Shown in pieces: positions 3,573-47,509 of a stretch of 64,000 bases of DNA (its first letter is position 1; each line of letters opens with the position of its first letter). The position numbers and the translations under genes were made by a program. This stretch comes from a virus. Lineage: Duplodnaviria > Heunggongvirae > Uroviricota > Caudoviricetes. Under the pieces are notes generated by a model. That model searched no databases, had not been told where the DNA came from, and was given only the letters and a program-made list of their open reading frames with translations. The stretch spans positions 39,803 through 103,802 of IMG/VR virus record IMGVR_UViG_2671180139_000002; one strand, written 5' to 3'.

Positions 3573-4322
3573 CTATTCCGCGGCCTCGGGTAGCGCAGCA
3601 GGCTTTTTCGCGCGCATCAGAGCGGCCGGAGTGGGCGTCGCGAGCCAGGTTTCCAGTGTCAGCGTGTTGCCGTGGTAGACAACGGCGCTGGATCCGGTGA
3701 GTGCGAGCTGGATGTAGCAGCCGCACATCGCGTCAAAGTCCACGTCGATCGCGTGCCAATAAGCATCGCGACCGATATCCAGGCCCTGTTCGGTGAGAAC
3801 CCGATTGCTGGCAAGGATCATTCCGCCAACCCCGCACGCCGGCTCCTGCAGCAGGAGATGATCGCGGCCTTCTGCTCTCGCCTCTGCAAGGATCACAGGA
3901 ACATTGGACAGGCTCAGTCGGGCGATCAGCTCGGACACGCTGTCTGGGGTGAAGAACTGACCGATCTGCGTGTTCGCCTCGACCTCCATGAAGATCGGGC
4001 CCAGGAAATCATACGGTGCTTCGGCGAGCGCCCTGCCCGCAATCCCTAGCAGTCTCGCGAAATCGCCCATTGTCGCTTTAGCGATCTGACAACGCGCCAC
4101 GATCTTCATGTACTCGGCTTCGTTGTGGCGCCAGGCGTCGCCGTCGGGCTTCAGCACCGAACCGCGGAGGCTGTAGAAAGCCGCGTGAAGCCAGGTCCGG
4201 AAAGCTTCACGTTCGCGCCAGCCTTCGCGATTGGTGACGTCCGCGAGCAGACCAAGGAATGTCTTGGTCGCTTCTTTGTGGCGCGGATCCGCGACCACGC
4301 GCCGAGCAGTCGGCTGCGCCAT
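3573..4322 (-). CDS. N6-adenine-methyltransferase-like protein (HsdM-type motifs X and I; motif IV absent)
   Basis: GQFFTPDSV matches motif X and EPACGVGGMIL matches motif I (FxGxG); a helical region follows, but the protein ends before any NPPY/NPPF catalytic motif. Confidence 0.4.
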   Translation of the reverse strand: MAQPTARRVVADPRHKEATKTFLGLLADVTNREGWREREAFRTWLHAAFYSLRGSVLKPDGDAWRHNEAEYMKIVARCQIAKATMGDFARLLGIAGRALAEAPYDFLGPIFMEVEANTQIGQFFTPDSVSELIARLSLSNVPVILAEARAEGRDHLLLQEPACGVGGMILASNRVLTEQGLDIGRDAYWHAIDVDFDAMCGCYIQLALTGSSAVVYHGNTLTLETWLATPTPAALMRAKKPAALPEAAE

Positions 4323-4529
4323 AAATCGCTCCTTCGTGATTTAGCGAGTTCGTGAAAACCGTGGATTAGCGAACCAGGCCGACGCTGAATTTGCGGCGCC
4401 CGATCCAGCGCCCAAGCGACCAATGCCGTCCGAAGTAGACCCATCCGGCGGAGCGATGACGCTCTAGGCCGCGCAAGGAGTTCGGCGCTCCATGCGCGTT
4501 CAGCAGGAAAGGGCCGAGATTTACCGCAA

Positions 4530-9632: not shown

Positions 9633-9651
9633 GGTCAATATTGACTTATCA
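9633..9651. promoter_or_regulatory. conserved palindromic motif instance (GGTCAATATTGACTTATCA)
   Basis: Member of the GATAAGTCA-N4-TGACTTATC family; overlaps the rIIB stop codon. Confidence 0.5.
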
Positions 9652-10986
9652 AACGGAACGCGAAGATGCCTTCAGGTTCTTCGAGAGGGACTCCCGATCC
9701 ATTTTTAGCGCTTTCGCGATAGTGCGAATGGACTCGCCAGCTTCGTGGCGACGCTTGGCCTCGGCGAACTTCTCCTCGTAGGTAGCGAAGGTCTGCGGGG
9801 CGGCGGGAGCTTCGATGTCGGGCTTACCCTTCGCTTCAACGAAGTCCTGGGCGAGCGCCTTCGGAGCCGACTTCCCGGAATGCACACGCGGGGCCTGCTT
9901 GACCGGCGGTGCCTTCTGCCGCTCGTTCTTGGCAGCCTCGGTGATCGCCGCGCTCATGTCGCCGGACACCGCGGCCGCGACCGCCGCCTTGACGTCCTTG
10001 GGTTCGATGCGGGCAGCAGTCTCGACGAAGCCCCGGCGGAAGTTCGACTTCTTGGGCTTCGAGGCTGTCGCCTTAACGGGCGTAGTCTGGACTTCGATGC
10101 CTTTCTGGGTCGTGCTGCCGCCGACGACAACTTCCTCCAGGACGCCGATGTGATTGCCGGCGAGCACCGCCGCTACGATGGCGCGACCTTCTTCGTCCTC
10201 GATCGCGGAGATCTTACCCGCCACCTTCTGGTAGACGCCCTTCGGCAGCTCGGCCACGAGGTGATAGGCGCAGGCCCGCATCTTGCCGGTCTCGATCGAA
10301 GGAACCGCGATCACGTCTGCCGGGCGAACCTTCGCCAGGAACACGGCTGTGCCGTAGCTGCCGTAGTTCTTGTTGCAAACGTGCAGTCCCGTCGAGCACA
10401 GGGTCCGGCGATTGTCGTCGACCTTCTCGGTGGGCATCGACACGCGAGAGCCGAGACGCTGCTCGACCTTGCCGGTATGCGTGTCCACGAAGACGCCGGG
10501 CTTGTCGCGGTGGGGCGTCAGGAACTTGTAGACGACGATGGAGCCGTCATCGGCGATCGGCAGATCACCGTTGCGCATGAACTGCAGGAGCTCGTCCGCG
10601 CTGTGTTTGTGCGGGATGCGGGCGAAGTCGTCCATGAAGGCGGCGAGAGCCTCGGCGCCGAACCCGTGCGCGGCTTCTTCCACGTACTTCGTCAGCGGAG
10701 CTGCGTCCGGGATGACGGCCGCCGAGGTCTTCAGGGCAACCGTGCCGTTGGGCTGCGCTTCCATCGTAATGGCGCCCTGGGTCATCTCCGCCAGCTTCTG
10801 AGCCAGGGAGAATTCATCAAGGTCGATCTCCGCGCGATGGCGCGTGGCGAGTGGGATTGCGATGCGTTCCATGATTGACTGGGTGCGCCAGTTCTCCTGG
10901 GGCAACACCTCCGACGTTCCGTCTTCCAGGAACAGCGTGATGCCGTTCCGGCTGACGATGACGCCAACTGCTGTGACCATCTTCAT
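9649..10986 (-). CDS. rIIB: rIIB lysis-inhibition protein
   Basis: C-terminal LCSTGLHVCNKNY...AKVRPADVIAVPSIETGKMRACAYHLV aligns with T4 rIIB (TCSRGLHVCSKSY...VKVHPRDVVSIPIDYNDAKMRTCQYEVV); immediately downstream of rIIA as in T4. Confidence 0.8.
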   Translation of the reverse strand: MKMVTAVGVIVSRNGITLFLEDGTSEVLPQENWRTQSIMERIAIPLATRHRAEIDLDEFSLAQKLAEMTQGAITMEAQPNGTVALKTSAAVIPDAAPLTKYVEEAAHGFGAEALAAFMDDFARIPHKHSADELLQFMRNGDLPIADDGSIVVYKFLTPHRDKPGVFVDTHTGKVEQRLGSRVSMPTEKVDDNRRTLCSTGLHVCNKNYGSYGTAVFLAKVRPADVIAVPSIETGKMRACAYHLVAELPKGVYQKVAGKISAIEDEEGRAIVAAVLAGNHIGVLEEVVVGGSTTQKGIEVQTTPVKATASKPKKSNFRRGFVETAARIEPKDVKAAVAAAVSGDMSAAITEAAKNERQKAPPVKQAPRVHSGKSAPKALAQDFVEAKGKPDIEAPAAPQTFATYEEKFAEAKRRHEAGESIRTIAKALKMDRESLSKNLKASSRSV

Positions 10987-13343
10987 TCTGCGTTCGTCTC
11001 CGTCTTGGGCTGGTTTGTGGTCGCTTTGGCCGCTTTCTCGACCAGGGGAAGGATGATCTCGAGGCTCTCGGTCGTGGTCTCGAAGGATGGGGTTTTGAGC
11101 ACTGCCGCCAGCGGTCTGAGGTGAGCCAGACGCACCGTCAGCTTCGCTCGCTCTTTAAGATCGCGAATTCGCGGTTCCGCTTTTTCAAGAACAGCGTCCA
11201 CGAGCTTCTTGAACCGTTCCTGACGCTCGCACTCCTCGTTGTAGTTTCCGGCCATCGAGTAGGAGCCGCCGGGCTTTACCCGGAACAACAAGCTGGCGCA
11301 GAGGATCAAATCCCAGCACGCATCTGCACCTTTGCTGGCGCGATAAGGCTCGGCGAAGGCCGCGTACGCCGCGCGCCGAGAATGCAACATGAGTTCGGAT
11401 GCGAGCACGCTCTCCGGGTCTCGATGCATTATGGCTTCGTGACACTGCGCCGCCATCAGCATGAAGACGTCCTCGGGACGCGGCTTCTTCAGCCGTTTCT
11501 CCAGGCGCTCAAGGATGATGTCCTCGATAGCTCTCGCGCCTGAATCCAGGAGCTTCTTCTGCTCCCGGATCCCGGTAATCAGTGCCGTCGCCGGAACCAG
11601 CTTGTTCAACAGGCGAATGCAGAACTGTGGCTGGCTTGTCGCACCGAACGAGACGGCAGGCACATCGTGGTGCGAGTATTTGGACATTGCCAGGAATGCC
11701 GCTGGCTCGGCGAGCGTCTTTGGCCGGTCCACATAGGCTCGTTTCTCATACGCACTGACCGCCAGGTCCGCGAGCGCGAGGTACTTGGGCTTGTTATCGA
11801 TCACCGTCGCTGGATCAGGCTTCGGCTTCTTCTCCCGCTTGATGCGATCGAGGAGCTCGGTGGTCATACCGTGCTTGGCCGCCCGCTCCCGGATATCCTT
11901 CAGTTCGGCTTCGCCGAGCTTGGGATCGATCAGAAAGTAGCCAACTCCGCCCCTCTTGAGCGCCGTTTCGCGGTTTGGCGCGATAACCAAATGCAGTTGC
12001 GTCATCGCCTGTTGATCAGACGGGGACTGGTGGCCGTAGCTGTCGTCCGACTTGCGAATTGGAAGCAGCCGCCCGGTCTTCTTCTCCCGGTAGAAGAGCC
12101 GCCCCATGTGGTTCGCGCCCGTCACTCGCAGCGTCCGGCGGCGGACCTGTTCGATGGCCTCGTCACGGAAGGTGCCAGGATAGGGCCATTTCTTGTAGCG
12201 GCGCGCGAACTCACGGCGATGATCGGGAAATCGGCTAACCGCGTAGCGCCCAAAATCCGCTGACTTGATCGTTCTCGTCTTAGCTATGGCGATGGCGATC
12301 TCGTCGGCGCCGGCGTGGACCCGCCGATCGATTTTCTCACCGGTAAAGTCGAAGTCCGCCAGAGTCAGTCGAGTGACGTTCTTGAGCCGCGCTTCGATGA
12401 CCCTGTTCGTCTCGCGCTTCCCGATCGCCTGAACCTCATGCACGAGCTTCCGCAGAACTCTCTTGAGAGTAGCGATTGTGAGATCGTCCATCTGCAGGTC
12501 TTCGCGAGAGGGCGTGACCGAGATCGTGTCCGGTTCAGCGCAGACCACCAGACCCATCCAATCGATGCAGAGCGCCTCCGCTTGACGCTGGAGCGTCCTG
12601 AGCTCCGTCGAGTCACGAAGCGGATACAGGACGTTCCCATAAAGGACGTGAATGCCCTGAAGGTTGGGAACCAGGCCGTAGCCTTGCTTCCGCAATTCCG
12701 CGTAATCGTAGTGATTAAGCAGCTCGCCGTTCAGCTCCACCTTGATGCCACTGTTCCTTGCGTCGGCTTTAATGATGCGCTCGAACTCCAAGCGGTGATC
12801 CAGCAGCCGCTCGACTGTCAGCGGGATCGTGACCGTCAGACCACTCTCGTCCGTCGGCGTGGACACCATCGGCCGCACCGCGGGCAAGCCGCCCGTGCTT
12901 TCGTCGCCGATGTGCATGGCGTAGATGGTCTTGACGCCTTCATGGCAGCTCGCGACCGTGAAGTGATCGGTATAGGCAAAGGGTGACTTCGACCCGAGGC
13001 CGAAGCCGCCGGTTTGGGTAGAGTCAGCGGTCTTGGTGGAGCCGAAATAGGTGGCGTAGATCTCCTCGATCCGGTCGTCAGCGATGCCGGGGCCGAAATC
13101 CTGGATCGTAAGCGCGGTTTCCGTCAGCGTGACCTTCACCGGCAGGTCCGGTTGACCCACCATGATGTGCGCATCGATCGCGTTCCGGACGACCTCGCGC
13201 ACGACGGCGAGCTTCTTGTCGCGGTAGAGCGCGTCGGACAGGATCTTGAAGGCATGTGCGGAAGCAGCGATTTGAAAGTTGCGGGCTGCACCGCCTCCGA
13301 CAATCGCGTAGTTGTTGTTCTCCGCAAGCGCATTTACTTGCAT
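10983..13343 (-). CDS. rIIA: rIIA lysis-inhibition protein (GHKL/HATPase-like N-terminus)
   Basis: N-terminal VREVVRNAIDAH...IQDFGPGI...GGFGLGSKS are histidine-kinase-like ATPase motifs typical of rIIA; 786 aa; rIIB adjacent. Confidence 0.8.
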   Translation of the reverse strand: MQVNALAENNNYAIVGGGAARNFQIAASAHAFKILSDALYRDKKLAVVREVVRNAIDAHIMVGQPDLPVKVTLTETALTIQDFGPGIADDRIEEIYATYFGSTKTADSTQTGGFGLGSKSPFAYTDHFTVASCHEGVKTIYAMHIGDESTGGLPAVRPMVSTPTDESGLTVTIPLTVERLLDHRLEFERIIKADARNSGIKVELNGELLNHYDYAELRKQGYGLVPNLQGIHVLYGNVLYPLRDSTELRTLQRQAEALCIDWMGLVVCAEPDTISVTPSREDLQMDDLTIATLKRVLRKLVHEVQAIGKRETNRVIEARLKNVTRLTLADFDFTGEKIDRRVHAGADEIAIAIAKTRTIKSADFGRYAVSRFPDHRREFARRYKKWPYPGTFRDEAIEQVRRRTLRVTGANHMGRLFYREKKTGRLLPIRKSDDSYGHQSPSDQQAMTQLHLVIAPNRETALKRGGVGYFLIDPKLGEAELKDIRERAAKHGMTTELLDRIKREKKPKPDPATVIDNKPKYLALADLAVSAYEKRAYVDRPKTLAEPAAFLAMSKYSHHDVPAVSFGATSQPQFCIRLLNKLVPATALITGIREQKKLLDSGARAIEDIILERLEKRLKKPRPEDVFMLMAAQCHEAIMHRDPESVLASELMLHSRRAAYAAFAEPYRASKGADACWDLILCASLLFRVKPGGSYSMAGNYNEECERQERFKKLVDAVLEKAEPRIRDLKERAKLTVRLAHLRPLAAVLKTPSFETTTESLEIILPLVEKAAKATTNQPKTETNAE

Positions 13344-31510: not shown

Positions 31511-32359
31511 TTACTTCCCGATGCTGATCATCGGGGTGGAGCCTCCGGGAACCATCGTGGAGGGGAGCTTGCCGTCCCAGCGTTCCGCCTGGGTCAGAGC
31601 TACGAGGTTGGGGTTGTCGCGCAGGGCATCGCCGCGAGCCTTGATGGCGGCCGCTTCGGCTTCGCCGCGCTTCTGCGTGGCATAGGCGTCAGCGTCGGCC
31701 GCGGCGCGCACCGAGTCTGCCTTGGCCTGGGCCTGCGTGACGGTGATCTGGGCCTGGACCTTCTCGCGCTGGGCGTTCTGCTGGAGCTTCTCGACTTCGA
31801 TCTGCGCCTGCATCCGCTGCTCGATCGAGGCGACGTACTGCGGGCTGAACGTGATCTCCTCGATCTGCACGCCCTCGACCACGACCGGGCCGTCGACCGA
31901 CTTCGCGATCGCGTCGAACACCTGCTGGTTCAGCTTGGCCCGGTCCTGGATGGCCTGCTGCGCGGTGAAGCGGCCGAACACGTTCTTGAACTGCTGCTGG
32001 ATGCGCGGCTGAATGAGACGGCTCTCGACGTTCTCAGCGTTGCGGAACTCCGCGTAGATCGCCTGCACCTTGCCGGGATCCAGGTGGTAGTTCACCGACA
32101 CGCGGATGTTCGCCGGCTGCTGATCGGAACTGTAGGCTTCCATCTGATCGATGGTCACGACCTGCATCTGCACCGGAAGCCGGGCGATGCTCTCGATGAT
32201 CGGCACGTTGAAATGAAGGCCGGGCTGCGCTTCACCGACGATGGCACCGTTGCGCAGGATCACGCCGCGTTCGCCGGCGTCGATTGAGCTGGCGCTGGAG
32301 AAGGCCAAAATACCGACGAAGAGAGCGGCGCCGGCGAGCAGAATTGCCTTGGGTTTCAT
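31511..32359 (-). CDS. SPFH/band-7 (prohibitin/HflC-like) membrane protein
   Basis: N-terminal TM anchor followed by an SPFH core (VVTIDQMEAYSSDQ..., coiled-coil tail). Confidence 0.75.
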   Translation of the reverse strand: MKPKAILLAGAALFVGILAFSSASSIDAGERGVILRNGAIVGEAQPGLHFNVPIIESIARLPVQMQVVTIDQMEAYSSDQQPANIRVSVNYHLDPGKVQAIYAEFRNAENVESRLIQPRIQQQFKNVFGRFTAQQAIQDRAKLNQQVFDAIAKSVDGPVVVEGVQIEEITFSPQYVASIEQRMQAQIEVEKLQQNAQREKVQAQITVTQAQAKADSVRAAADADAYATQKRGEAEAAAIKARGDALRDNPNLVALTQAERWDGKLPSTMVPGGSTPMISIGK

Positions 32360-41925: not shown

Positions 41926-41953
41926 ACAAGAAAAGCGCCCTCGCAAGGGCGCT
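41926..41953 (-). terminator. intrinsic terminator downstream of the XRE regulator gene
   Basis: Minus strand reads GCGCCCttgcgaGGGCGC followed by TTTTCTTGTG. Confidence 0.55.
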
Positions 41954-41994
41954 CAGTTACGAAGGCTGTTGAAACAGCCTCCGCAGTTCAAAGG

Positions 41995-42399
41995 TCAGGT
42001 CGTGGGCGAGCCGAAGACCGTTTCGAGCTTCTGCTCTAGGTCCGGCGTGAGCGACGGGTCCTGGTTATCCGTCAGCTCGCGGATCTTGGCGAGAACCTTG
42101 GACTCGTTCTTGGAGCAGATGGTGCCGAAGACGGTCCCGATCACATCGATGGACCAGCCATGCTGTTCCATTGCGAGACGGAAGAGAAAGGCGGGGTCGA
42201 CGTTCAGAGACTTCGCCAGCAGCGGAATCTTGTCCATCGGAACTCGAGCTTCGCCGCGCTTGATCATGGAGATCATGTTCGGCTTGTCATAGCCGACTTC
42301 GTCGGCGATCTGACGCTGGGTCTTCATACCCTGGATCGCGTCGATCTGCTTGCTCAGGTAGCTTGCAAGCCTAGTATGCTCGAACGGCCGTGCCGGCAT
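41995..42399 (-). CDS. XRE-family (Cro/CI-like) HTH transcriptional regulator
   Basis: MKTQRQIADEVGYDKPNMISMIKRGEARVP is a typical HTH_XRE; it diverges from the plus-strand membrane-protein island. Confidence 0.7.
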   Translation of the reverse strand: MPARPFEHTRLASYLSKQIDAIQGMKTQRQIADEVGYDKPNMISMIKRGEARVPMDKIPLLAKSLNVDPAFLFRLAMEQHGWSIDVIGTVFGTICSKNESKVLAKIRELTDNQDPSLTPDLEQKLETVFGSPTT

Positions 42400-42595
42400 T
42401 TAACTTCTCCAAATCGTCGTTTCCACTGTTTCTAGCCCTCTGTGATGTTGTCGTCCGTTTTTGATTTATTGTTGATCGACTACATAGCAGGACAGGTAGT
42501 GGCAAGTCAGTCAGTAGATGTGTTTTCTTGTGGGGCCGTTAATCGTCCTTGTTGATTTCGGTTCCCGGATTTCGTCAATTAGACGAGACGAAGGC

Positions 42596-42618
42596 GATAA
42601 GTCAAAACATATTGATCA
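42596..42618. promoter_or_regulatory. motif variant (GATAAGTCAAAACATATTGATCA) in the divergent intergenic region
   Basis: Lies in the 42400..42876 non-coding region. Confidence 0.35.
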
Positions 42619-42686
42619 TCCGGCGTAACGAAACGGTGAGTTCGGGTGCTCGGCTGATCAATAGGTCAGGACGCGCCGTTCGGTTC

Positions 42687-42702
42687 CATAATGCATATTA
42701 TG
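42687..42702. promoter_or_regulatory. perfect palindrome CATAATGCATATTATG (candidate operator)
   Basis: 6-4-6 inverted repeat in the divergent region between the XRE regulator and the DUF805 gene. Confidence 0.45.
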
Positions 42703-42876
42703 CGAATGGAGCTGGAGCACCCCCAAGGCGCTGGGAGGCCCGTCAGCGGCAAGATTCAGAAAGCTTGGGCAGATTAGTCACAAGCGGCGGAATGTTCAAC
42801 CACGAGCTCCTGAGAGGCTTGTAGCTCCGTTGCGTCTAAGTAGTGTCTCCAGCGACAAACAAGACGGCGGGTAAGA

Positions 42877-43467
42877 ATGAACTGGTATTTGAAGGCGATG
42901 CGCCGCTACTTCGAGTGGCGTGGTCGATCGGCGCGGGCCGAGTTTTGGTACTTCACGCTCTTTTATCTGATAATCTCCTTCCTCAGCGGTGTGGTCGATT
43001 ACCTCCTTGGCTACACCGATGTCGATCAGCTTACCCCGGTAAACACCCTGGTGATCCTGGTCCACATCATCCCGACGATCACCGTCTCCATCCGCCGCTT
43101 TCATGATAGAGATCAGAGCGGCTGGCGGACACTCGGTCTCATCGTTCCGATCGCCAATCTGGTGCTGCTCGCTGACCTCGCCCGAAGGGGAACAGACGGG
43201 CCCAATCGATTTGGCGACGATCCGCTCGACCCCATTGCCGATCCTCACGTCCATTCTCGTCTTCTTCAAGCTGGCGCCCCTAGAAGCGTACCTGTTGTCA
43301 ACCCGAGAAGACCCACATTCACTTCTCACAACGCCGCCGTACCCAGCTCCAGCAACAGCTTGATTGAAGAGATCGAGCGTTTGGATCAGCTTCGGCGAAA
43401 CGGCGTCATCTCCGAGCAGGAGTTCGATCGTCTGAAAGCCAACACCATGAAGCGAGCTGACGCATAA
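42877..43467 (+). CDS. DUF805-family inner-membrane protein with C-terminal SHOCT domain
   Basis: MNWYLKAMRRYFEWRGRSARAEFWYF...IRRFHDRDQSGW is the DUF805 signature; C-terminal LIEEIERLDQLRRNGVISEQEFDRLKAN is SHOCT-like. Confidence 0.7.
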   Translation: MNWYLKAMRRYFEWRGRSARAEFWYFTLFYLIISFLSGVVDYLLGYTDVDQLTPVNTLVILVHIIPTITVSIRRFHDRDQSGWRTLGLIVPIANLVLLADLARRGTDGPNRFGDDPLDPIADPHVHSRLLQAGAPRSVPVVNPRRPTFTSHNAAVPSSSNSLIEEIERLDQLRRNGVISEQEFDRLKANTMKRADA

Positions 43468-43898
43468 TGAACCCCGACGTTTCTACGGGCCTTCTGCTCA
43501 TCGTCATCCTGATTGCGCTCTATCTGTTGCCCGCGATCATCGCCTTCTCACGAGGGCACCATAACCGGGTCGCCATCCTCGTTCTCAACTTGCTGCTGGG
43601 ATGGTCAGTTCTCGGTTGGATCGCCGCGCTGGTTTGGTCGTTCACGGCGGTCGAGCGTGCGCCAGGCGTCATTTATACCGATCAGCGAGCCCGTGAGCCA
43701 CGAACCGTTCGTATTGAGCCCGTTTCGCCCGTTCGGCAGATCGAACCTGTGGTGTCGGCCGAACCGCCGGCGAGCTTAGACGGGGCCGATATCGAAGAGC
43801 ATTTGCGCCATCTTGAGGCGTTAAGAGGTCGCGGCGTGATCACCGAGGAAGAACTGCGCGAACTCAGGCTGAAGGCGATCAGCCACTCCGTCCGATAG
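43467..43898 (+). CDS. superinfection immunity (Imm-family) membrane protein with C-terminal SHOCT domain
   Basis: LYLLPAIIAFSRGHHNRVAILVLNLLLGWSVLGWIAALVWSF matches the Imm_superinfect signature; C-terminal LRHLEALRGRGVITEEELRELRLKA is SHOCT-like. Confidence 0.65.
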   Translation: MNPDVSTGLLLIVILIALYLLPAIIAFSRGHHNRVAILVLNLLLGWSVLGWIAALVWSFTAVERAPGVIYTDQRAREPRTVRIEPVSPVRQIEPVVSAEPPASLDGADIEEHLRHLEALRGRGVITEEELRELRLKAISHSVR

Positions 43899-43993
43899 GC
43901 GATCTCGACACCACCGGAAGTAGCATGGTGGGACGCACCCGGACCATGCTCCTCTCAACTCGTTCTTCGTTCTCGAAGAGCGGGAGAGAGATA

Positions 43994-44434
43994 ATGAGAA
44001 GCATCATTCAGGTGGCAGAGGTGTTGTCGGTGATCAGCTTCGTCGCGTTCTGTTTGATGGGCGCGGTGACCCTCTGGATCCAACAAAAGGCAGCAGCGGC
44101 CGCCGGCGCAGCCACAACCAGTGCGGCTGGTGCCGCCGCGAGCGCCGCGGCACAGCCTACAGCCGATCAGCACGGCTTCGCAGCCGATGCGTTGCAGACT
44201 GCAGTCGACCTGGTGAAAGCAATTCCTGCAGCAATGGAGGCCGTCGTAAAGGCAGGACCCGCCATGGCGGCACTTCTTGCTTCCATACTCTTTCTGGCGA
44301 TCGCGGCCACGGTCGCGATCGAGCGCCAGCCGAAACTCTCATGCTCGATCCCCGCGCAGACGGGCCTGACCCTTGACCAAAACAAGTTGAAAGATGCGGT
44401 GACGGTGATCTGCGTGGGCGTCAAGAAGAGCTAG
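43994..44434 (+). CDS. membrane protein (Ala-rich, 2-3 TM)
   Basis: Hydrophobic helices at both ends and a poly-Ala central segment; third gene of the plus-strand island. Confidence 0.4.
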   Translation: MRSIIQVAEVLSVISFVAFCLMGAVTLWIQQKAAAAAGAATTSAAGAAASAAAQPTADQHGFAADALQTAVDLVKAIPAAMEAVVKAGPAMAALLASILFLAIAATVAIERQPKLSCSIPAQTGLTLDQNKLKDAVTVICVGVKKS

Positions 44435-44534
44435 CTTCTCCGCCATCGACGATTTCACCGGCCCGCCGGCGTCAATCCCCTACCCTGCTCCTGTCCTGTG
44501 AATAACGGGACTCGCCACCTCATCCCGAATCGCG

Positions 44535-44548
44535 CATCACTTGTGATG
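44535..44548. promoter_or_regulatory. perfect inverted repeat CATCACttGTGATG upstream of the RHH gene
   Basis: ~25 nt upstream of the 44573 start; operator-like. Confidence 0.4.
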
Positions 44549-44572
44549 CTTCCGTGGTGAACGAGGCGTTTT

Positions 44573-44791
44573 ATGGATCGAGCAGTGGATCAGAGCAGCC
44601 ACCGGCGCCGCATGGCGCAGCACAGAGAGCAGCGCAAGGCCGAAGGGTTTCGCGAGGCTAATGTGTGGTTGCGCCAGGATACGCTCGCCGAAATCGACGA
44701 GCTGGTCGCGTCTGGACAGTTCCGCAATCGATCCGAAGCCATCGCTGCCGCCGCGCAAGCCTTCTTCAAGGAGAAGACTTTGAACACGTAA
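44573..44791 (+). CDS. ribbon-helix-helix (CopG/ParD-like) DNA-binding protein
   Basis: WLRQDTLAEIDELVASGQFRNRSEAIAAAAQAFF has the RHH beta-alpha-alpha pattern. Confidence 0.55.
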   Translation: MDRAVDQSSHRRRMAQHREQRKAEGFREANVWLRQDTLAEIDELVASGQFRNRSEAIAAAAQAFFKEKTLNT

Positions 44792-44929
44792 CCGCAAAAG
44801 CAAAAGGGCCTACGAGGTTGGCGCCTCGTAAGCCCTTGATGTTGATCACCGCCTGGTAAGGCAGACAACCGCGCTTCAGCAACGCGAATCTGCCCCTCCA
44901 GTCCGAAGAAGTCAAGTGACACCTTCGCG

Positions 44930-46102
44930 GTGAACGGCATCGCTTTGCCTGAAAACGGGGAATTGATGCAGACCGTCCCATCGGGCGGCCGACGGCTCAC
45001 GCCTGCCGTTTTGGCCGGGAGAGAACTCGCGTTCGAGAAAGAGCGCACCGTCTCTCGTAAGGAATTGGCGCAAACCGCTCGTGAAGCTGAGAAAGCTCTC
45101 TCGCTGCGGCCCGGGCTGCGTCTGGTCCTCCATGAGCTTGTTGGCTCTTGGGGCGAACAGGACTTCGAGGGCAAGCTTCTGGTCTGGCCGTCGAATGATT
45201 ACCTGGTCGCGCGCACCGGCTTGTCGGAACGCACCGTGCGGTATGCGGTCAGCCAGCTTGTGGAGCTGCAGCTCGTCTCCTCGAAGGACTCCGCGAATGG
45301 GAAGCGCTTCGCTATTCGCGATCGCGCCGGCGAGATCGTGGACGCCTTCGGCTTCGACCTGACGCCTCTCTATGCGCGCCGGGGAGAGTTCACTGCCGAG
45401 ATCGAGCGCCAGAAGCTCGCGCGTGACGCCCAGGGGCGCTTGTTCGACCAGATTACGATCTGTCGCCGGGCGACGGAGGAAGCGCTCAGCGCGCTCGCGG
45501 AGCATTTCCCGGGTGTCGTCACTGCTGATCTGATCGAAGCGCTGGATGAGCTTCGCGAGCGTACTCCGCGACGTGGTTCCATGCGGCCAATCGAACGGCT
45601 TGTCGGTGAGTGGTTAGAGATCCGAAGGCTTGCCGAGAAGCGCTATTATGAGTCCGCCAATGGCGGCAATTCTTGCCGCCACAAAGAAACAAACAACGAC
45701 TCCCCTAGTGAGTCTTGTACAAAGGTCGATGAGGGAGTTGGTTCAGCGGAACGGCCCGTTTCCCTCACACTCGGCCTCGTATTGGATGCCTGCCCTGCCC
45801 TTTCGATGTATCCGCGGCCGATCCGCAGCGAAAATGACCTGATCGACGCTGGAAAGCATCTTCGATCCATGCTGAGCGCACATCCGAGCGCCTGGCGAGA
45901 GGCCGTTGAGGCGATCGGACCCGTGCGAGCTGCCGGCGCCGTTGCTCTCGTGCTCCAGCTCTATGAAGACGATCAGGCCGCGGGCACGAACCGGATCCGA
46001 AATCCTGGCGGCTACTTCCGAGCCATGGTGCGCATGGTCGCCGAGGGCCGGGTCGACCTGCAGACGGAGATCATCGCGCTTCGGAAACGTCGGCTCTGCT
46101 GA
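44930..46102 (+). CDS. repC: RepC-like plasmid replication initiator (repABC family)
   Basis: LLVWPSNDYLVARTGLSERTVRYAVSQLVELQLVSSKDSANGKRFAIRDRAGEIVDAFGFDLTPLYARRGEF...ICRR aligns closely with RepC proteins; an internal AT-rich stretch lies at ~45640-45730. The true start may be the second Met at 44966. Confidence 0.7.
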   Translation: MNGIALPENGELMQTVPSGGRRLTPAVLAGRELAFEKERTVSRKELAQTAREAEKALSLRPGLRLVLHELVGSWGEQDFEGKLLVWPSNDYLVARTGLSERTVRYAVSQLVELQLVSSKDSANGKRFAIRDRAGEIVDAFGFDLTPLYARRGEFTAEIERQKLARDAQGRLFDQITICRRATEEALSALAEHFPGVVTADLIEALDELRERTPRRGSMRPIERLVGEWLEIRRLAEKRYYESANGGNSCRHKETNNDSPSESCTKVDEGVGSAERPVSLTLGLVLDACPALSMYPRPIRSENDLIDAGKHLRSMLSAHPSAWREAVEAIGPVRAAGAVALVLQLYEDDQAAGTNRIRNPGGYFRAMVRMVAEGRVDLQTEIIALRKRRLC

Positions 46103-47509
46103 TCAGAAGAGCTTAAAGTGGGTCACCGGCTTGAAGATATCTCCTACGGCCTTCTCAACCTTGTAGATATCGTTTCCGGGACCTGGACCGTGTTGAAGAT
46201 CGTGAAGACCATTGTTGAGAGCCTCTACGGTTTTCCCTCGAAGCCCGAAAGGATCCTCTATCGTCTTCAGAGCCTGATAAGCTACGCTATTCTCCCCGAG
46301 AGCGTGTTTAATCATGTCATCCCGTTGGTGCAGTAGTTTGACAAAGTCATTATTTGGACCAAAGCACCCGTCGTCTGTGCCAATACCATGTTCGAGACAC
46401 TTTCCAAGCTCGCGCTCAAGAAGCTTACCGCCTGTGCAGACGACATACGCATGGGGCTCCATCTTGGTGTCGATCGCGCAACCTAGAGCGATCTGTTGCT
46501 CCGGAGTAGCATTACGGGCAATCGCGCAGACCATAGCAGCCGAGAGACTATCTTTGTTTTGGGTGAGACATGCGAGGTAGTACCGCTGATCCTCGTTCAT
46601 AAATGGGTCAGCCACGCAAACTGCCCGGTCGGTGTTGCTATGCGCCTTGTCCACGCACTTTTTGAGATTGGTCACCTTGTCGTATATTTCGGTGAATCGC
46701 TTCCCACCGGTGGAACAAGCTAGAGCTCTGACGCGATCCTCGTCGTTATCCTCAAGGCACTTTTCCGTGGTTCGGTATGAGCGCGGAAGCGCGCGCTCGA
46801 CAACACAGGACTGAAACTCATCCTCGGTATTTGAACCTTCCTGACATTCCCGCAGACCATCCAAGCTGGGTATCGGAGGCGCTGCCAGCATCGTCTCGGA
46901 CTGAGCCGTCCCCGAGTTGGTGATCAGCCCCTCGCCATTCATGCCTTCGGTCGGCACAGAGACGGATAATCCCGCGGGAGTTATGCTGCCGAAGCCATTC
47001 GGGTTGATGAAAATCGGGCCAGGATCGGAAGGCGGAGGCGGTGCGCAGATTAGCGCTCCAGGAAGCCCACAAGGCAATGCTGACAGGCAGGTAGGAAAAG
47101 GTGGAGTCCCGCAAGCTGGTGCGACCGGGAATGGTGGAAACGGGAATCCGGGCGGTGGAGGGCACGCGATCGTGCCCGGTAAGCCACACGCGCGCGGCAT
47201 CGGGCAAGGAGACAGGCCCATTGCACCGCAGAACGGCTCACCTGATGAACCTACAATCGGCTGGACCACCGACCCAGTGGGAGAGCCGAAACAGGGACCG
47301 TTGTTGATGCAAGACTCGAAAGTCGGAGTATCGACAAAGAGCCCGCTACAAGCTTGCATCAACTGCGTGTTGACCGCTCCAACGTGCCAGCAGTCGATTA
47401 TCTTAGATCTCGGAGAGGCTTGTGAGTGGACAGCGTTCGTGACGCTGACGATAAGTATGACGCTTATGCAAAACCGCAGTAAAGCCGAACGTGAAAGTGT
47501 TGCGCCCAT
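46103..47509 (-). CDS. secreted Cys- and Pro-rich protein (signal peptide)
   Basis: N-terminal signal peptide (LLRFCISVILIVSVTNAVHSQA); about 40 Cys; repeated CGxPG...PPPP segments; the DNA is lower in GC than its surroundings. Confidence 0.55.
   Translation of the reverse strand: MGATLSRSALLRFCISVILIVSVTNAVHSQASPRSKIIDCWHVGAVNTQLMQACSGLFVDTPTFESCINNGPCFGSPTGSVVQPIVGSSGEPFCGAMGLSPCPMPRACGLPGTIACPPPPGFPFPPFPVAPACGTPPFPTCLSALPCGLPGALICAPPPPSDPGPIFINPNGFGSITPAGLSVSVPTEGMNGEGLITNSGTAQSETMLAAPPIPSLDGLRECQEGSNTEDEFQSCVVERALPRSYRTTEKCLEDNDEDRVRALACSTGGKRFTEIYDKVTNLKKCVDKAHSNTDRAVCVADPFMNEDQRYYLACLTQNKDSLSAAMVCAIARNATPEQQIALGCAIDTKMEPHAYVVCTGGKLLERELGKCLEHGIGTDDGCFGPNNDFVKLLHQRDDMIKHALGENSVAYQALKTIEDPFGLRGKTVEALNNGLHDLQHGPGPGNDIYKVEKAVGDIFKPVTHFKLF

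Follow-up and report, generated by a model that had tools for sequence, protein, structure and literature searches.

The 64,000-nt stretch of DNA analyzed here (hereafter the window, to which all coordinates refer unless a locus is named) carries three plus-strand genes for small membrane proteins, ORF1 to ORF3, that face a minus-strand gene for an XRE-family regulator. A sequence-only reading of this DNA had proposed the three genes, below called the cassette, as a superinfection-exclusion module. The three ORFs that it listed (42877-43467, 43467-43898 and 43925-44434) and the XRE ORF (41995-42399, minus strand) are all present, and the gap between the XRE gene and ORF1, estimated there at ~480 bp, measures 477 bp. 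Its picture of a plus-strand island stands in that nearly all other genes lie on the minus strand, but the block comprises five genes, with those for a ribbon-helix-helix (RHH) protein and the replication initiator RepC following co-oriented. The cassette and the regulator gene are as follows.

42877-43467, plus strand: ORF1, 196 aa, with a DUF805 core of three transmembrane (TM) segments (residues 11-113), a Pro-rich linker and a SHOCT domain (residues 164-188)
43467-43898, plus strand: ORF2, 143 aa, with an Imm_superinfect core (residues 18-59), a ~45-aa linker and a SHOCT-like helix-turn-helix (residues 107-142)
43994-44434, plus strand (open from 43925): ORF3, 146 aa, a protein of two TM helices that also has an Ala-rich linker, the segment VKAGPxLAxLxASILF and, at its C-terminus, a Cys...Cys motif
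41995-42399, minus strand: XRE-family helix-turn-helix (HTH) regulator, 134 aa

Profile searches, which the sequence-only reading had set as the test of its Imm and DUF805 assignments, agree with both. ORF2 matched the Pfam family Imm_superinfect (PF14373) with 72 bits against a cut-off of 27.9 and with all 42 model positions covered, and ORF1, which has three hydrophobic segments, matched DUF805 (PF05656) with 84.5 bits against a cut-off of 25.7. T4 Imm itself scored 58.2 bits against Imm_superinfect, and ORF2 additionally matched PHROG 1039, 'immunity to superinfection', with 84.6 bits. Direct comparison of ORF2 with T4 Imm gave 41% identity over a 46-residue core by blastp (E=1e-12) and a probability of 98.4% by hhalign profile-profile alignment (E=5.9e-15), while tblastn against 50,697 phage records returned no match for ORF2, and profile-based searches were required. 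In the family alignment, R29 of ORF2 corresponds to R33 of T4 Imm and is kept in 24/24 members, and W46 corresponds to W50 and is kept in 22/24; the T4 Imm mutants R33A and W50A are reported to be impaired in exclusion (preprint 10.64898/2026.03.06.709160). These alignments identify ORF2 as a genuine homologue of T4 Imm. The helical-bundle domain of gp29, the T4 tape-measure protein (TMP), is reported to co-purify with T4 Imm, whose binding disturbs the opening step of the inner-membrane conduit (10.64898/2026.03.06.709160). In an AlphaFold2 (AF2) model, ORF2 has a confident helical membrane core (residues 3-60) made of helices 3-19, 21-29 and 34-60, with a predicted local distance difference test score (pLDDT) of ~90 and hydrophobic segments at 9-27 and 35-53, followed by a low-confidence linker and a confident helix-turn-helix at 107-142. 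When this model was used for a fold search in BFVD, the top matches were annotated superinfection-immunity proteins of T4-like phages, at a weak E value of 0.07.

The sequence-only reading had also given both ORF1 and ORF2 a SHOCT tail. For ORF1 this was borne out, with the tail scoring 28.5 bits against the SHOCT (PF09851) cut-off of 27 and the DUF805 core likewise above its own, whereas the ORF2 tail, at 14.8 bits, remained under the same cut-off. Using a hidden Markov model (HMM) of SHOCT built from outside sequences on the six-frame translation of the window, ORF1 was recovered with E=3e-9 and ORF2 with E=3e-6 (residues 113-138), all other matches lying above E=0.5. This independent profile and the confidently modeled helix-turn-helix support a SHOCT-like character of the ORF2 tail. 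The two tails had been described as duplicated; they share 29% protein identity and no DNA similarity, which rules out a recent duplication, and on this comparison they would be independent acquisitions or the product of an old event. Nor does a SHOCT tail set this Imm protein apart, since of 81 Imm ORFs from viral contigs at least 11 end in a SHOCT domain. Imm proteins with SHOCT also include P0013 and P0028, P0002 carries SHOCT at its N-terminus, and the DUF805-SHOCT architecture recurs in P0048; the Imm-SHOCT architecture is common in prophages. Eight of the nine Imm genes adjacent to a tape-measure gene encode a SHOCT, against 3 of the 72 others, a difference to which few lineages contribute. 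They lie as follows.

~3900-4350 of the IMG/VR loci L019, L022, L027, L029, L031, L037, L038 and L043: tape-measure-adjacent Imm ORFs, with a lambda-type tape-measure gene from ~4370

The position of SHOCT-Imm genes beside tape-measure genes fits the reported physical interaction between T4 Imm and its tape-measure protein. For SHOCT itself a role in oligomerization has been proposed, to which the sole experiment gave no support (PMC3581485), and comparative work predicts an intracellular domain that serves as an inner-leaflet anchor or as an assembler of membrane-associated complexes (PMC11237479). Another domain, DUF2510 (PF10708), is fused to Imm_superinfect in P0040 and to DUF805 in P0044, mirroring the shared SHOCT fusions; these parallel fusions hint at a similar membrane context for DUF805 and Imm.

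The stop codon of ORF1 and the start codon of ORF2 overlap in the sequence TAATG, and the two genes are therefore co-translated. Apart from its SHOCT tail, ORF1 matched only DUF805 or 'membrane protein' families; the DUF805 family also includes E. coli YhaH/YhaI. An unannotated DUF805-like ORF with 30% identity to ORF1 was also seen in Shigella phage 75/02 Stx (L095; KF766125.2, 16349-16693), and again in POCJ13. In these Stx phages it lies in the early region between antirepressor and hypothetical genes, which indicates that DUF805 is occasional prophage cargo elsewhere.

The third gene had been described as encoding a small TM protein from 43925, and two TM helices are indeed predicted, but its start is most likely the internal ATG at 43994, because the NCBI start, the ribosome-binding site GGGAGAGAG and the N-termini of homologues agree on it. 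ORF3 found no match in Pfam, PHROG, PADLOC or NCBIfam, and a word-indexed search returned the self match alone. By an exhaustive HMMER search over 1.84 billion representatives, eight remote full-length homologues were recovered, in whose alignment the two TM helices, a VKAGPxLAGLxASILF segment and the C-terminal Cys...Cys motif are shared; ORF3 is therefore taken as a real gene of a tiny uncharacterized family. The sole genomic relative has a chromosomal context with neither DUF805 nor Imm nearby, and no relative was found in viral contigs. With a mean pLDDT of 64.6 for its AF2 model, ORF3 was kept out of the fold search.

Whether the three genes keep company elsewhere was assessed at 80 viral Imm loci, using our own DUF805 HMM within 4 kb and Pfam on 142 flanking ORFs. 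DUF805 was detected at 0/80 of these loci by the former and in none of the flanking ORFs by the latter, and the closest DUF805 homologues occupy ordinary chromosomal contexts or small mobile elements, with no Imm neighbor. Since the DUF805-Imm pairing does not recur and the closest homologues of ORF1 and ORF3 lie in ordinary chromosomal contexts, a three-part system is unsupported, and the sequence-only view of the three genes as one module does not extend to the sampled loci, where DUF805 and ORF3-family genes never accompany Imm. The same 142 ORFs beside viral Imm genes show an enrichment of XRE/CI repressor genes (HTH_3, 8; Peptidase_S24, 4; Phage_CI_repr, 3) and, on the tail side, of tape-measure or tail-chaperone genes (Tape_meas_lam_C, 9; Phage_tail_T, 3); the P0002 gene likewise has a divergent XRE gene upstream. 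Such neighborhoods of repressors and tape-measure genes would fit an exclusion role. The family is well represented in viral contigs, where a single peptide pattern yielded 229 confirmed matches.

By its gene content and protein matches, the window is assigned as part of a siphoviral phage-plasmid of the RHEph10/pLM21S1 type, carried by the soil bacterium Faunimonas pinastri (Hyphomicrobiales). Proteins identical to ORF1, ORF2 and ORF3 are recorded from F. pinastri, on a 109,453-bp contig of an isolate assembly, a length that suits a phage genome, and such a separate contig is consistent with a plasmid prophage. The DnaE polymerase has its best matches, of 59-61% identity over the full length, in the Rhizobium siphoviruses B1VFA, V1VFA-S, RHph_X66 and RHEph10 (~115-122 kb), followed by Pseudomonas phage nickie and the phage-plasmid SSU5 at 37-43% identity. 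The gene order is that of RHEph10, running on the left through DnaE, a sigma factor, CobS, CobT, a small ORF and the XRE-like gp041, and on the right through gp040 (RHH) and RepC, divergent to XRE, and then ligase, primase, helicase and PhoH. Counterparts in RHEph10 were determined for XRE (38% identity, E=1.6e-32), RHH (37.5%), RepC (43%) and a 69-aa ORF (48%), and none was found there for ORF1-3. pLM21S1 of Sinorhizobium, kin of RHEph10, is a plasmid-like prophage that replicates by RepC and lacks an integrase (PMC4447125; see also PMC7969092). The DnaE match, the RHEph10 synteny, RepC, the kinship with pLM21S1 and the separate contig, taken in combination, make a temperate phage-plasmid lifestyle most likely.

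A T4-like origin of the window, which matches to rIIA/rIIB, UvsX, gp46, gp41/gp61 primase/helicase, CobS/CobT and PhoH had suggested, proved wrong and was dropped, because the polymerase is of DnaE type and has its kin among siphoviruses of the RHEph10 type and phage-plasmids resembling SSU5. Clear rIIB-like (272 bits) and rIIA-like (365 bits) genes are present at 9649-13343 on the minus strand of this siphoviral phage-plasmid backbone. A Band_7/SPFH-domain protein without a SHOCT tail is encoded at 31511-32359 on the minus strand (127 bits); Band 7 is the commonest SHOCT fusion partner in the literature.

The site of the cassette becomes apparent from the arrangement of the surrounding control and replication features.

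42400-42876: left portion of the ancestral divergent control region between XRE and RHH, 477 bp, with two motifs conserved in relatives
42598-42605, plus strand: TAAGTCAA, half-site of a dispersed palindromic 18-mer family, found in the XRE-RHH intergenic region of 5/5 compared replicons
42683-42705: conserved dyad block GTTCCATAAT-GCAT-ATTATGCGA, containing CATAATGCATATTATG at 42687-42702; unique in the window
44527-44549: RHH-proximal conserved motif, GAATCG-N2-CATCACT plus the dyad GCATCAC-TT-GTGATGC, the right part of the split ancestral region
44573-44791, plus strand: small RHH protein, 72 aa, RHH_1 20.0 bits (borderline), 37.5% identity to RHEph10 gp040
44794-44839, minus strand: ctRNA_p42d-like antisense hairpin and T-run in the RepC leader, with a 14-bp stem terminator
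44930-46102, plus strand: RepC-type replication initiator, RP-C 155 bits and RP-C_C 74 bits, 39-43% identity to RHEph10-type RepC

The XRE gene of RHEph10, of B1VFA and of a 115-kb Pararhizobium plasmid is separated by a cargo-free gap of 350-400 bp from a divergent gene for a 60-68-aa RHH protein, with RepC directly after it, whereas in the window the XRE-to-RHH distance is 2,173 bp and is filled by the three membrane genes. The motif TAAGTCAA and the dyad block lie left of the cassette and the GAATCG-type motif lies right of it; the latter motif (GAATCG-N2-3-CATCACT) stands ~40 nt before RHH and is aligned in 5/5 replicons. Because conserved motifs thus flank the cassette on both sides, its insertion is seen to have split an ancestral control region, and this motif order places the insertion, in this lineage, between the dyad block and the RHH-proximal motif. 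No direct repeats flanking the cassette were found as insertion scars. The GC content at third codon positions (GC3) is 0.67-0.71 in the cassette, 0.70-0.74 in RHH/RepC and 0.80-0.86 in core phage genes. Among 59 further relatives drawn from IMG/VR by the XRE protein, XRE faces RHH in 21, with a gap of 250-400 bp in 14 and of 758-2,208 bp in 7. What fills the enlarged gaps varies: genes for a tyrosine recombinase, for a secreted protein and for an MtlR-like protein were seen, as was a second small HTH gene running in the direction of RHH-RepC. This varied cargo marks the XRE/RHH slot as a recurrent cargo site; genes of the Imm, DUF805, SHOCT and ORF3 families were found within 7 kb at 0/59 of these loci. 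The second small HTH gene occupies the slot in several Methylobacterium-type relatives (L010, 3804-4979, the M. oryzae plasmid NZ_CP090351; L105, L109, L110 and L112), where it forms a CI/Cro-like divergent pair; the record of the M. oryzae plasmid carries no annotation for it; the L105 slot holds the tyrosine recombinase.

No repA-repB partition genes lie directly upstream of repC, where the RHH gene and the three membrane genes are found instead. At 44794-44839 the Rfam family RF00489 matches over the full model and in the expected place and strand, with a sub-threshold score of 21.6 bits (gathering score 50; E=0.34), and the phage-plasmid may thereby retain a repABC-type antisense control of repC despite having no repA/repB.

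As the sequence-only reading had it, the minus-strand regulator belongs to the XRE family (Pfam HTH_3, 24.7 bits; cut-off 23). A role dedicated to regulating the cassette is not supported: the protein is 38% identical to RHEph10 gp041 and has homologues in 10 Rhizobium phages and 49 plasmids, and its gene, which faces RHH-RepC in relatives, is a conserved backbone gene of RHEph10-type phage-plasmids. No CI-type Peptidase_S24 match was obtained for the protein at E<=1 in Pfam, and its C-terminal part is group-specific. The perfect palindrome reported at 42687-42702, CATAATGCATATTATG, is not perfect over its 16 bp: two 6-bp arms, CATAAT and ATTATG, enclose a 4-bp spacer that lacks symmetry. The 477-bp region holds two such repeats where 1.15 would be expected, and two are reached in 32% of shuffles; it is the conservation of the dyad in relatives, and not the unremarkable repeat count, that makes it significant. 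Across the compared replicons a ~23-nt block, GTTCCATAAK-N4-MTTATGCRA, is conserved in the same region and between the same flanks GTTC...GCGA, and both left motifs are present in RHEph10, B1VFA, Pararhizobium p5 and the M. oryzae plasmid. The core CATAAK-N4-MTTATG occurs in the window, in RHEph10 (CATAAG-CCAC-CTTATG), in B1VFA (CATAAG-GCAT-CTTATG) and in the M. oryzae plasmid (CATAAT-TGAG-CTTATG) and is degenerate in Pararhizobium; in the RHEph10 and B1VFA dyads, one arm shows T-to-G and the opposite arm the matching A-to-C. The 16-bp dyad, whose half-sites are spaced by one helical turn, suits an HTH dimer in size and also reads as two back-to-back -10-like hexamers, and the block at 42683-42705 is a credible candidate for an operator or for overlapping divergent -10 elements.

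The motif-family copy noted in the control region was likewise found, as TAAGTCAA at 42598, but only as a half-site variant. The full palindromic 18-mer, TAAGTCA-N4-TGACTTA (<=3 mismatches), occurs at 20 sites in the window, where 0.52 would be expected, and nearly every copy sits at a gene junction, upstream of a minus-strand gene. B1VFA and a Methylobacterium plasmid also carry full copies between XRE and RHH. The family is a candidate set of dispersed operators or phage-specific promoters. Its example sites and two further features around the block are as follows.

9631, 13406, 19150, 21246, 37314, 39204, 41536, 41897, 53763, 55601, 59455 and 60650: sites of the 18-mer
41933-41954, minus strand: terminator-like hairpin and T-run just past the XRE stop, with a 9-bp stem of which 6 pairs are G-C
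46103-47509, minus strand: orf468, 468 aa, with an N-terminal signal-like segment, Cys/Pro-rich repeats and an unusually low GC3 of 0.58

The gene orf468 found no match in Pfam, PHROG, PADLOC or NCBIfam; it substitutes for RHEph10 gp038 beside RepC, so that it too probably represents a recent acquisition of cargo.

The reading that we favor, at a probability of roughly 0.55, is that an Imm-type exclusion gene with two co-expressed membrane partners was inserted into the replication-control region of a phage-plasmid. We infer the target, the exclusion activity, the timing of expression and any cooperation among the three proteins as follows. By analogy with T4 Imm, ORF2 would attach at the inner membrane to the tape-measure protein of an infecting phage and prevent channel formation, most likely excluding superinfecting phages of the same or related type at the step of DNA entry. 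The SHOCT hairpins of ORF2 and ORF1 would probably act as cytoplasmic, membrane-proximal adaptors, and ORF1, being translationally coupled to ORF2, is co-produced with it. ORF1-3 would be transcribed together with RHH-RepC, or from the same control region, and made in the plasmid-prophage state, as a prophage exclusion function would require. Expression in that state is probable, because the rightward unit must make RepC, no plus-strand terminator-like structure was found between ORF3 and RHH, and the conserved control motifs of the upstream side now stand ahead of the cassette. A more elaborate version, in which ORF1, ORF2 and ORF3 form an inner-membrane complex through their SHOCT tails, block DNA entry together and do so with a strength tied to the RHH-ctRNA-RepC replication control, appears improbable; if true, such a complex would be the first function for the widespread DUF805 family and for SHOCT.

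Several points weigh against the exclusion reading. Neither DUF805 nor ORF3-family genes occur with Imm at the 80 viral Imm loci or the 59 XRE-related loci, and Imm-family genes are also found on chromosomes with no evident phage context, as for P0037 on a 4.3-Mb contig. No PADLOC defense model matches the cassette. The sigma-70 scan gave its sole plus-strand match inside ORF1 and nothing convincing upstream, so no promoter was found for the cassette, and its probable expression in the plasmid-prophage state is read from gene position. The tape-measure gene of this phage, whose product is the proposed target, lies outside the window. To our knowledge, T4 Imm is the one characterized member of the family, and T4, a lytic E. 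coli myovirus, is distant from a siphoviral phage-plasmid.

Three other explanations can be considered. The genes might be membrane 'morons' that alter host envelope physiology, for instance stress tolerance, transport or lysogen fitness, the Imm hairpin being a common membrane module. We consider this unlikely, although Imm_superinfect and DUF805 are both widespread in bacterial chromosomes, the closest DUF805 homologues lie beside housekeeping genes, each of the two families is fused to SHOCT and DUF2510, which suggests a shared general membrane context, and the phage also encodes the Band_7/SPFH gene; comparative genomics has in addition connected SHOCT-like domains with membrane-associated complexes and with the envelope-stress network PSP (PMC11237479). 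What speaks for exclusion instead is that ORF2 keeps the residues essential for T4 exclusion, that the Imm family is strongly represented in viral contigs (the 229 matches to one peptide pattern), and that its viral neighbors are the repressors and tape-measure genes expected of exclusion genes.

It could also be that ORF2 excludes, but as an early lytic function guarding the infected cell, as in T4, with the cassette repressed in the plasmid state. T4 Imm is made during lytic infection (10.64898/2026.03.06.709160), RHEph10 and B1VFA were recovered as phages that form plaques, the conserved operator-like dyads of the control region could shut the rightward unit, and RepC may have its own promoter near the RHH-proximal motif. 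Such timing is nevertheless quite unlikely given that RepC, which is needed for plasmid maintenance, lies downstream and co-oriented with no terminator between, and that the element forms its own contig in a bacterial isolate assembly. A role in plasmid maintenance or lysis control, with the proteins acting as post-segregational-killing toxins or in the manner of holins and antiholins, is highly improbable: no similarity to toxin, holin or antitoxin families was found in Pfam, PHROGs, NCBIfam or PADLOC, no lysis genes are adjacent, and relatives persist without the cassette. These facts stand against the location inside the replication and maintenance module, the small hydrophobic nature of the three proteins and the toxicity of over-expressed T4 Imm (10.64898/2026.03.06.709160), all of which such a role would accommodate.

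ORF2 adds a member to the Imm family; the phage-plasmid that carries it is of a known type, and its position within the XRE/RHH-RepC control region is new. Under the favored reading of ORF2 as an exclusion gene, it would, as anti-phage cargo, be a plausible, fairly ordinary and not a surprising find. If ORF2 excludes, the tape-measure mechanism of T4 Imm would extend to siphoviral phage-plasmids of Alphaproteobacteria, and a phage-plasmid would have been shown to place an exclusion gene inside its replication-control unit. The translational coupling of ORF2 to a DUF805-SHOCT protein offers a cheap experimental handle on two large families without known function, a shared function of the pair being uncertain because the pairing does not recur. 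The conserved dyad and the dispersed 18-mer provide an entry point to an unstudied regulatory circuit of RHEph10-type phage-plasmids.

Compared with the RHEph10/pLM21S1 group, the element has the same backbone and gene order through RHH, RepC and ligase, with proteins 38-61% identical, and differs in that only the present element has three membrane genes in the XRE/RHH slot and orf468, a different gene, after RepC. The Imm-SHOCT proteins of the lambda-like prophages listed above resemble ORF2 in the Imm core, the linker and the C-terminal SHOCT, at 31-36% identity over ORF2 residues 1-139, but are encoded within the tail module, where the tape-measure gene follows immediately, whereas ORF2 lies between XRE and RHH-RepC. 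P22 sieA/sieB, lambda rexAB and HK97 gp15 are exclusion genes that sit beside the repressor and are expressed from the prophage. SieA, SieB, Rex and gp15 have no sequence relationship to the cassette proteins, yet these genes share with the cassette the arrangement of a membrane-protein gene beside a temperate element's immunity or regulatory region and a proposed block of DNA entry, and HK97 gp15 has also been tied to the tape-measure protein (10.64898/2026.03.06.709160). With respect to T4 Imm, ORF2 has an additional ~45-aa linker and SHOCT hairpin, comes from a siphoviral phage-plasmid of an alphaproteobacterium and not from a lytic myovirus, and is located in a replication-control region where it is coupled to a DUF805 gene; the Sp (spackle) partner was not evident in Pfam and PHROG searches of ORF1 and ORF3, the rest of the genome not having been searched for Sp. 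Both are small phage inner-membrane proteins, and ORF2 shares with T4 Imm the membrane core and its Y-x2-P, R, N-L-L, G-W and G-W motifs.

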